From: Escherichia coli
GTDB lineage: Bacteria; Pseudomonadota; Gammaproteobacteria; Enterobacterales; Enterobacteriaceae
Assembly (NCBI RefSeq): GCF_016026235.1
Contig: NZ_CP065613.1
Strand: one strand, 5' to 3'
Length of the DNA stretch: 64,000 bases
Shown here piece by piece: positions 3,272-3,990 of the stretch. The notes below the pieces were generated by a model that was not told the DNA's origin, ran no database searches, and saw only the letters and a program-made list of their open reading frames with translations. The translations under genes were made by a program, and so were the position numbers. The stretch's first letter is position 1, and each line of letters opens with the position of its first letter.

Positions 3272-3563
3272 AGCCTCACCTCCGCAAATAACGGATGGCG
3301 TAGTTTTACACTGAGAAATGAAAGGGATTTGAAAAGAAAAAAACGCAAAAGCGGGCGAAACGATATATACAGTAAGGAAAGCACTCTATCCAACAAACCA
3401 CCCACAGTTAATCGGAATAAAAGCAGAGTGCTTATGAATGATCGCACGCCCGAAGGTTAGTATTTCTGCACAGCAATTTTGCAAAAAAAGGCGATCATTC
3501 ATAACTTAAACGTCTTTCAGTCACTCCGGGATTTCCCATCATCGCAGACTGAAAGACTCTGAC

Positions 3564-3638
3564 TGGAGCGGGCAGCGGGAATCGAACCCGCATCATCAGC
3601 TTGGAAGGCTGAGGTAATAGCCATTATACGATGCCCGC
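3564..3638 (-). tRNA. tRNA-Gly (anticodon UCC)
   Basis: Reverse complement folds as cloverleaf GCGGGCAUCGUAUAAUGGCUAUUACCUCAGCCUUCCAAGCUGAUGAUGCGGGUUCGAUUCCCGCUGCCCGCUCCA; matches my recollection of E. coli glyT. Confidence 0.8.
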
Positions 3639-3641
3639 ATA

Positions 3642-3717
3642 TGGTGCCGACTACCGGAATCGAACTGGTGACCTACTGATTACAAGTCAGTTGCTCTGCC
3701 TGCTGAGCTAAGTCGGC
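3642..3717 (-). tRNA. tRNA-Thr (anticodon UGU)
   Basis: Cloverleaf with 7-bp acceptor GCCGACU/AGUCGGC, anticodon loop CUUGUAA, T-loop GUUCGAUUC, encoded CCA. Confidence 0.8.
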
Positions 3718-3719
3718 GC

Positions 3720-3796
3720 TGGCCCACCACCGAGGACTCGAACCTCGCACCGTCAACTTAGAAGGTTGATGCTCTATCCGGATGAGCTAGTGGTGG
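3720..3796 (-). tRNA. tRNA-Arg (anticodon UCU, reads AGA), phage-type
   Basis: Cloverleaf with anticodon loop CUUCUAA, T-arm CGAGGUUCGAGUCCUCG, encoded CCA; 5' base appears to be C, which is unusual. Confidence 0.7.
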
Positions 3797-3797
3797 T

Positions 3798-3874
3798 TGG
3801 TGGCCCTTGCTGGACTTGAACCAGCGACCTGGCGATTATGAGTCGCTCGCTCTGACCAACTGAGCTAAAGGGCC
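3798..3874 (-). tRNA. tRNA-Ile2-like (anticodon CAU, lysidine-type; could be scored as Met)
   Basis: GGCCCUUUAGCUCAGUUGGUCAGAGCGAGCGACUCAUAAUCGCCAGGUCGCUGGUUCAAGUCCAGCAAGGGCCACCA, close to E. coli ileX-type tRNA. Confidence 0.75.
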
Positions 3875-3961
3875 GGAGGCAGAATAATAACCATATGTCA
3901 TCACATCTGCAAACTCATCTGACCACCAGCGTGTTTAACGTCCTGTACCGTTTTTCAGGCA

Positions 3962-3990
3962 TAAAAAACCCGCCCGGAGGCGGGTTTAAG
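3962..3990 (-). terminator. intrinsic terminator between Q and the tRNA cluster (tR'-like)
   Basis: On minus strand: hairpin CCCGCC-UCCG-GGCGGG followed by UUUUUUAU. Confidence 0.5.

Follow-up and report, generated by a model that had tools for sequence, protein, structure and literature searches.

Taken together, our results indicate that the stretch of Escherichia coli DNA analysed here (64,000 nucleotides of contig NZ_CP065613.1; hereafter, the window) carries, in the late region of a lambda-like prophage, a compact cluster of four tRNA genes, tRNA-Ile2 (CAU), tRNA-Arg (UCU), tRNA-Thr (UGU) and tRNA-Gly (UCC), placed between the antiterminator gene Q and the holin gene S. We consider it likely that this cluster functions as a tRNA operon and augments the supply of minor tRNAs that suit the codon usage of the prophage. 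The integrity of the four genes, their origins, the boundaries of the modules that they form, the conservation of the promoter geometry and the match with prophage codons are observed.

ARAGORN places exactly four tRNA genes in the window, all of them on the minus strand and within 311 bp (3564-3874). In minus-strand order these are tRNA-Ile2 (3798-3874, labelled Met/Ile2 by ARAGORN), tRNA-Arg (3720-3796), tRNA-Thr (3642-3717) and tRNA-Gly (3564-3638), separated by spacers of 1, 2 and 3 nt. Each gene encodes its own CCA end and is recognized by the Rfam model RF00005, with scores between 56 and 70 bits (70.5 for Ile2 and 56.4 for Arg; E values of 3e-10 to 4e-14) with respect to a gathering score of 29. 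On identical DNA in seven complete genomes, PGAP labels the genes tRNA-Ile, tRNA-Arg, tRNA-Thr and tRNA-Gly. Hand-reading of the sequence found every stem of tRNA-Arg paired, with A20 and C35 present, together with a T-stem mismatch in tRNA-Thr (A52xC62) that is the same in host thrU and a mismatch in Ile2 (A27xC43) that is the same in the ileZ gene of Shiga toxin (Stx) phages. Minimum-free-energy folds of the single sequences did not reach the cloverleaf for all four, as is expected for tRNAs, for which the covariance model is the proper test. The four genes are intact, and the cluster and its anticodons, which the initial annotation of this DNA had read from the letters alone, are confirmed by the agreement of ARAGORN, Rfam and PGAP, with no pseudogene call from the predictors. 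The idea that they are pseudogenes or mispredictions could draw on the degenerate copies present in related loci, none of which lies in the window, but it deserves practically no credence: two independent predictors and PGAP concur, the scores lie far above the gathering score, and the cloverleaves and CCA ends are intact. We regard this reading as excluded by ARAGORN, Rfam and the cloverleaves themselves.

The anticodons of the cluster correspond to the codons that the prophage over-uses. In this regard, we compared 12,600 codons of the near-identical prophage of strain CFSAN029787 with those of 34 adjacent host genes (11,813 codons), and the seven codons of highest prophage-to-host ratio among 61 were, from rank 1 to rank 7, AGA (7.8x), AGG (5.7x), AUA (3.9x), CGA (2.7x), ACA (2.3x), CGG (2.1x) and GGA (1.9x). 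The primary codons of the four tRNAs rank 1, 3, 5 and 7, and five of the top seven codons (AUA, AGA/AGG, ACA and GGA) are read by the tRNAs of the window; CGA and CGG are plausibly read by the argN tRNA, with anticodon UCG, of 933W-type phages. If codons are taken as independent, the chance that four named codons fall within the top 7 of 61 is C(7,4)/C(61,4) = 7e-5. In Fisher tests with respect to the host genes, p was about 1e-3 at most and 2.5e-16 at the lowest; this holds for AUA, AGA and GGA in each of the three gene sets, and for ACA in two of them (late and early). The cognate codons are more enriched in early genes than in the late structural ones, which fits expression from a promoter of the cluster itself better than purely Q-dependent expression.

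Such a promoter can be proposed. A promoter scan flagged a putative sigma-70-type site, here called pT, at 3884-3912 (minus strand), with TTGCAG (3912-3907) and TATTAT (3889-3884) separated by 17 nt and ending 9 nt 5' of the Ile2 start. In the record of phage 933W, its homologue bears the annotation 'pT; putative tRNA promoter', and a tRNA promoter is mentioned at the matching place in Stx2 phages (PMC2858043). Both hexamers are invariant across six diverged loci. In a wider sample of 105 loci with an ileZ-type gene, comprising 53 distinct upstream sequences, the geometry TTGNNN-17-TANNNT-9 is kept in 98, TTGCA[AG] in 92 and TATTAT in 82, and the spacer and the sequence further upstream vary freely. 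This pattern of conservation argues for pT being a real promoter. Since a conserved sigma-70-type promoter abuts Ile2, expression is probably not only Q-dependent: besides Q-modified polymerase, the promoter of the cassette itself would drive transcription. The pT site, a second promoter-like element beside Ile2, is new relative to the initial annotation, which had the cluster expressed with the late genes under Q antitermination: the Q-dependent setting described below upholds that route, but not as the sole one.

Several points weigh against the proposal and should be considered together. The structural genes of the prophage lie outside the window, so that the CFSAN029787 prophage, 99% identical over the shared part, served as a stand-in for the codon comparison. 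ACA is not enriched in the small set of lysis genes, and the strongest enrichment of the cognate codons falls in early genes, which are expressed before Q acts. Moreover, horizontally acquired DNA is in general rich in rare codons that end in A, and the rank match is therefore no independent evidence of selection for this purpose. A terminator scan and folding found no convincing intrinsic terminator between Gly and S, only weak candidates. Finally, decayed copies occur in related prophages, among them a 'Val(UAC)' gene, a half-glyT remnant and odd anticodon loops, and selection on the cassette is accordingly not universal.

The conserved promoter also bears on a reading that overlaps with the proposed operon and is compatible with it, namely that the tRNAs act in lysogenic conversion, being expressed constitutively from pT so that the host benefits in translating A+T-rich acquired genes, including, in Shigella and enteroinvasive E. 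coli, those of the invasion plasmid. Besides a promoter that abuts the tRNA genes independently of Q, it is favored by the rarity of the codons concerned in the neighbouring host genes and by the closest complete genomes being those of human isolates, with ipaH and IS600 in their prophages or flanks; CFSAN029787 is presumably an enteroinvasive strain, although its record does not say so. On the other side, the same modules occur in E. coli of many sources (poultry, pigs, fish and river water among them), the activity of pT is a prediction, and the window contains no virulence-plasmid sequence on which codon usage could be computed. We therefore hold such a role to be possible, if hardly probable.

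A model can be proposed for the tRNA operon that we favor, in which transcription, processing, charging and a benefit to phage or host are what we infer from the genes and their signals. Within the late region of a lambda-like prophage at mlrA (yehV), the cluster would be additional cargo, the Q-proximal Ile2-Arg pair bringing its own promoter and the S-proximal Thr-Gly pair deriving from a host thrU-tyrU-glyT segment. Promoter pT would provide some level of transcription of the cluster and, after induction, Q-modified RNA polymerase would proceed from the late promoter pR' through the terminator tR' and the tRNA genes towards S. Given spacers of just 1-3 nt, cleavage by RNase P at each 5' end and trimming by 3' exonucleases should suffice to free the four tRNAs, of which Ile2 would need lysidine from the host enzyme TilS. 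The products would then add to four minor host tRNAs, reading AUA, AGA/AGG, ACA and GGA. In K-12, thrU, glyT and argU are single-copy genes for minor tRNAs, and extra gene dosage would accordingly be the simplest mechanism.

The setting in which Q would act is well represented in the window. The minus-strand gene order is ninH, Q, the tRNA genes, a 292-bp gap, S, a gene of unknown function, an endolysin gene and Rz, as deduced from PHROG matches and from the RefSeq annotation of identical DNA, with ninH coming from RefSeq only. The Q gene (4074-4454, minus strand) is of the H-19B / Stx1-phage / 933W type: it matches phrog_79 ('anti-termination protein Q-like', E 3e-53), its product is 87% identical in amino acids to Q of H-19B, of Stx1a phages and of Shigella phage 75/02, and RefSeq names the identical gene 'antiterminator Q family protein'. 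S (3056-3271, minus strand), a class II holin gene and the first lysis gene of the late operon, matches phrog_9876 and phrog_20 and is named 'class II holin family protein' in RefSeq. These matches bear out the flanks initially assigned to the cluster, and it can be added that cluster, Q, S and tR' all lie on the minus strand, which had not been stated.

Downstream of Q, a putative pR'-like late promoter (4018-4045, minus strand) consists of TTTACG (4045-4040), a 16-nt spacer and TATTCT (4023-4018); the 933W record gives TTTACG-16-TATCAT as 'pR'; putative late promoter', which our analysis took as the same hexamers and spacing. The initial transcribed region (3997-4017, minus strand) includes a qut-like stretch, GTTAAGAGTGGTTGCTTCGCC, proposed by homology only, that was aligned by eye with 933W GATAAGAGTGGTTACATTGCC, within which the 933W record annotates 'qut; putative Q-utilization'. 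Next comes a tR'-like intrinsic terminator (3961-3987, minus strand), whose stem, AAACCCGCC / GGCGGGUUU, encloses a UCCG loop and precedes a U-tract. Folding gave a 9-bp G+C-rich stem with a free energy of -18.9 kcal/mol and a z score of -3.17, in agreement with the terminator initially placed at 3962-3990. A simple terminator scan missed this hairpin, likely because some of the T residues of the run are taken up in A-U pairs of the stem. In 933W, the homologue of the hairpin is the first of the terminators annotated downstream of pR', and the stretch is 88-90% identical to its counterparts in phage phi467 and strain S51. A four-way MAFFT alignment of the Q-to-tRNA intergenic regions was too gapped, and the correspondence of pR', qut and tR' with 933W was read by eye. 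Together, Q, pR', the qut-like site and tR' point to a Q-dependent late-operon setting in which antitermination is predicted.

On the other side of the cluster, the non-coding spacer between Gly and S, initially estimated at about 290 bp, measures 292 bp (3272-3563, minus strand) and remains linked to S. Its two small open reading frames gave no PHROG family match. It contains two long inverted repeats, at about 3557-3512 (GUCUUUCAGUC...GACUGAAAGAC) and at about 3504-3432, the latter with a 14-bp perfect pair (UUAUGAAUGAUCGC...GCGAUCAUUCAUAA), which could serve in processing or termination, and, at about 3405-3330, a hairpin with a U-rich run after it, all given on the minus strand; this last element may terminate transcripts from pT. 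The folds of the spacer have z scores of -1.5 to -2.3, which are not decisive. In the loci of S51, phage 689R5, phi467 and strain FDAARGOS_943, the sequence of the spacer is 97.6-99% identical; that of phage HK639 is about 79% identical, and the HK639 record annotates a terminator at the homologous place, the sequence of which is not conserved.

The origin of the Thr-Gly pair can be traced to the host. The Gly gene is identical to K-12 glyT over 75/75 positions, and the Thr gene is identical to K-12 thrU at 74/76, with both differences (U16C and U20C) confined to the D-loop; the Thr copy of other prophages is identical to thrU at 76/76. In the host the order is thrU, tyrU and glyT, with spacers, and the prophage joins Thr and Gly by TAT alone, in which T corresponds to the first base 3' of host thrU and AT to the last two leader bases of glyT. 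This match with the host flanks is limited to 3 nt, for which the chance is about 1/64, and no other homology of the Thr-Gly flanks with the host thrU-tyrU-glyT region was found beyond these 1 + 2 nt. Upstream of Ile2, a stretch that matches the glyT-thrT spacer at 13/15 positions (E = 4.8) was dismissed as chance. The identities, the gene order and the junction together argue for a host origin: the pair is a copy of thrU...glyT without tyrU and the spacers, likely captured as one host segment that then lost 208 bp including tyrU. The likeness to thrU and glyT and the capture suggested in the initial annotation are therefore supported by the alignment to the host genes. A literature search found no published account of a capture or host origin of thrU/glyT in phages.

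The C16/C20 variant of the Thr gene co-occurs with the Ile2 and Arg alleles of the window. By hand comparison, its D-arm resembles that of argO, the third tRNA gene of 933W-type Stx phages, and a local alignment of 61 nt between the window Thr gene and argO is 82% identical, argO being otherwise only about 71% identical to Thr by hand count. Gene conversion from argO to Thr was considered as the source of the variant. U16 and U20 of the thrU tRNA are presumably dihydrouridine sites.

The Q-proximal pair has a different origin. Ile2 is identical to Stx-phage ileZ at 74/77 positions (96%) and to host ileX at 69/77 (90%). The anticodon loop CUCAUAA and the pairs C4-G69 and C5-G68 are common to Ile2, ileX and ileZ, and the acceptor stem beginning GGCCC is alike in Ile2 of the window, ileX and ileZ. 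The C4-G69 and C5-G68 pairs have a role in recognition by TilS. On these grounds the CAU gene appears to encode tRNA-Ile2 rather than tRNA-Met, in agreement with the PGAP label tRNA-Ile. The Arg (UCU) gene is 83% identical to the 933W-type argN (UCG), 86% to a 'Lys(UUU)' allele found in other prophages, 73% to host argU and 60% to argO, and it follows an ileZ homologue as argN does, with anticodon UCU where 933W has UCG. It is a member of the argN lineage rather than a copy of host argU or argO.

Across prophages, this second tRNA position, between Ile2 and Thr, is occupied by a single lineage with bodies 83-86% identical and many anticodon loops, and it is by far the most divergent segment of a block that is otherwise 96-100% conserved. 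The anticodons seen in relatives are UCG (933W argN), UCU, UUU with C33, AAA, UUA, which is ochre-suppressor-like, and UAA, together with loops of odd length; the commonest allele has the loop CCUUUAA, with the unusual C33 and anticodon UUU. Alleles of this position can be found in loci L002 (3449-3525), L008 (3448-3524), L018, L028, L061 and L072. Such striking variability of the anticodon loop raises the idea that the cassette serves in anti-defence, replenishing or replacing minor tRNAs that tRNA-targeting toxins of the host cleave or inactivate in the course of infection, as has been proposed for phage T5, and the Arg body in the window being only 73% identical to argU speaks in the same direction. 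The anticodon loops of the window, CUCAUAA and CUUCUAA among them, are nevertheless all equal to those of ileX, argU, thrU and glyT, so that loop mutation as a way of evading nucleases finds no support here; Gly and Thr, being essentially host sequences, would be cleaved like the host copies; and the codon match offers a simpler explanation. We know of no nuclease specific for these four tRNAs. An anti-defence function of the cassette is thus very unlikely, and we find it just as doubtful that the second position is a fast-diversifying substitute tRNA in an arms race with tRNA-targeting nucleases, in a cassette devoted to anti-defence instead of codon aid.

The two pairs meet in a stretch that is well known from toxin-bearing phages. 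Stx2a phage F349 matches the window over 3720-3891 only, a stretch made up of the Arg and Ile2 genes and 17 nt of promoter sequence. Phage phi467 (stx2f; LN997803) matches from S up to 3722, through the spacer, Gly, Thr and a CCAGC remnant, and in a second block over the tR' region (3947-4003); its stx2fAB genes lie between the two blocks. In 933W-type phages, ileZ-argN-argO lies downstream of Q and is followed by stxAB. The breakpoints of homology (3719-3722, 3891 and the CCAGC footprint of phi467) are sharp and fall at tRNA ends or no more than 17 nt away, in three independent comparisons. The cassette is a join of two modules, the ileZ/argN pair and the host-derived Thr-Gly pair, with a boundary that falls within the stretch where Stx phages carry stxAB. 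From the layouts of phi467 and 933W, the frame of the window corresponds to a Stx-phage frame in which a promoter-plus-tRNA pair occupies the toxin place of phi467. This supports the location at the stx insertion locus that was proposed at the outset, as the same tR' and Thr-Gly-S elements enclose stxAB in phi467 and stxAB follows the tRNA genes in 933W. The absence of toxin cargo, also part of that proposal, was borne out in tblastn searches with the A and B subunits of Stx1, Stx2a and Stx2f: none of the six subunits gave a match at E < 0.1 across the whole window.

Breakpoints so close to tRNA ends are what would be expected if the tRNA genes were recombination joints, and the cluster could then be a scar of module swaps among lambdoid phages, its genes being passengers without selected function. 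The existence of decayed copies is in line with this notion. We nonetheless judge it unlikely, since the window holds four intact genes with perfect or host-like stems, Gly is unchanged in most related copies and most Thr copies equal thrU, the pT geometry is kept across diverged flanks, and the anticodons match the codons most over-used by the prophage.

Counts across genomes indicate how widespread the two modules are. Among 5426 complete E. coli genomes, the Thr-Gly module with its spacer is present in 519 and the Ile2-Arg/Lys pair in 1711; the whole 802-bp region is 100% identical in 6 complete genomes and 99.8% identical in 1 more. The exact Thr-TAT-Gly junction occurs in at least 120 IMG/VR contigs, and the cassettes around it, among the IMG/VR matches listed, are Ile2-Lys(UUU)-Thr-Gly (45), Ile2-Arg(UCU)-Thr-Gly (37) and Thr-Gly alone (17), with a few carrying odd second-position genes. 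In the loci examined, the Arg allele of the window was counted 33 times (including the window itself and L003, the FDAARGOS_943 locus), the C16/C20 Thr allele 31 times and the Ile2 allele 29 times; the thrU-identical Thr allele has 75 copies, and Gly has the glyT sequence in 103/119 related copies. The haplotype of the window is one common haplotype, its exact form occurring in about 30 IMG/VR contigs.

Individual relatives illustrate the decay of these genes. In E. coli FDAARGOS_943 (L003), the gene at 3295-3366 annotated as 'tRNA-Val(UAC)' is a decayed glyT that bears the changes C35A and A38G and has lost 1 nt from the 3' strand of the acceptor stem, in an otherwise near-identical cassette that sits in an IS600-disrupted prophage. 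Phage HK639 (HM208537; L014 1501-1828) has, between Q and the lysis genes, an unannotated tRNA-Asn (GUU) followed by a half-decayed glyT copy, the 3' half of which is 100% identical and the 5' half scrambled, and then by the spacer described above.

With respect to the prophage as a whole, collinearity with strain CFSAN029787 places it next to mlrA (yehV), and yehV is listed as an insertion site of Stx phages (review, PMC8065619). The window is about 99% identical (99.1%) to the CFSAN029787 prophage over the aligned 84% of its first 25 kb; in the collection of complete E. coli genomes, no full match was found to the whole of these 25 kb, 84% being the best coverage. At about 1190-1390, the window is without the RelE/ParE-ParD pair that CFSAN029787 has between Rz and a KilA-N gene (L001 5414-5948). 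The gene at 2424-3053 (minus strand, phrog_1085), between S and the endolysin gene R, has an A5 run at 2985-2995 where CFSAN029787 has A6, and its frame is shifted after about 23 codons, indicating either a pseudogene or a sequencing error. In the early region, Rfam identified a C4 antisense RNA (8815-8902, minus strand, 80 bits) adjoining an isrK Hfq-binding RNA (8927-9003, minus strand, 62 bits); the CFSAN029787 counterpart carries genes of Rha-family regulators according to RefSeq. To the left of window coordinate 1, the CFSAN029787 prophage has a frameshifted gene for an ipaH-family type III secretion system effector beside its tail-fibre genes (L011 9037-10679), which links the prophage with lineages of enteroinvasive E. 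coli and of Shigella.

Together, our findings portray the Q-to-S interval of lambdoid phages as a cargo slot, in which the same tR' and Thr-Gly-S elements can hold between them either a tRNA pair or stx2f, the points of exchange lying at tRNA ends. They also provide a clean example of a temperate phage that copies single-copy minor tRNA genes of its host, thrU and glyT, and keeps them host-identical. For annotation purposes, the prophage, at the classical yehV/mlrA site, should be described as related to Stx prophages but free of the toxin, not as a degraded Stx phage. The cassette is ordinary: two widespread tRNA modules of prophages have recombined in a cargo slot that was already known, public genomes already carry its annotation, and its overall importance is modest; the variable second tRNA position of its relatives is the one unusual feature and could be worth experimental attention.

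The closest known system is the ileZ-argN-argO cluster of 933W (NC_000924) and Sakai-type Stx2 phages, which occupies the same place, after Q, pR', qut and tR' and before the lysis genes. Ile2 is 96% identical to its counterpart there, the second tRNA belongs to the argN lineage at 83% and pT is homologous. In contrast to 933W, the window has UCU instead of UCG in the second tRNA and Thr-Gly in place of argO, its spacers are of 1-3 nt instead of 9-13 nt, and it is without stxAB, the nanS-like esterase gene and the second tR'. In the case of phi467, the likeness resides in the same tR'-region hairpin and in a Thr-Gly-spacer-S block that is about 96% identical; it differs in that the place of pT-Ile2-Arg is taken by stx2fAB together with other DNA of about 500 bp, the upstream tRNA being reduced to the CCAGC footprint. 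The Ile2-'Lys(UUU)'-Thr-Gly cassettes of S51 and phage vB_EcoS-689R5 share the four-position architecture, the spacers and the flanks, with 95-96% identity over 3049-3891, but have a second allele 86% identical with the loop CCUUUAA, a Thr gene that equals thrU exactly and other Q modules.

As for the host, the thrU-tyrU-glyT-thrT-tufB operon has the same order and matching junction bases, with 97% identity for Thr and 100% for Gly, whereas the prophage lacks tyrU and 208 bp of spacer as well as thrT and tufB, and shows no homology outside the mature tRNAs beyond the junction bases. Finally, the tRNA clusters of phages T4 and T5 are likewise tightly packed and, as would be expected here, co-transcribed and released by RNase P. 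Unlike them, the window belongs to a temperate lambdoid phage, with four genes only, two of which are essentially host sequences, and its tRNAs are without anticodon-loop differences from those of the host. Codon compensation is given as the classical explanation for phage tRNA genes in PMC7946995 (citing Bailly-Bechet et al., 2007), and it is the one to which the four genes described here may best conform.

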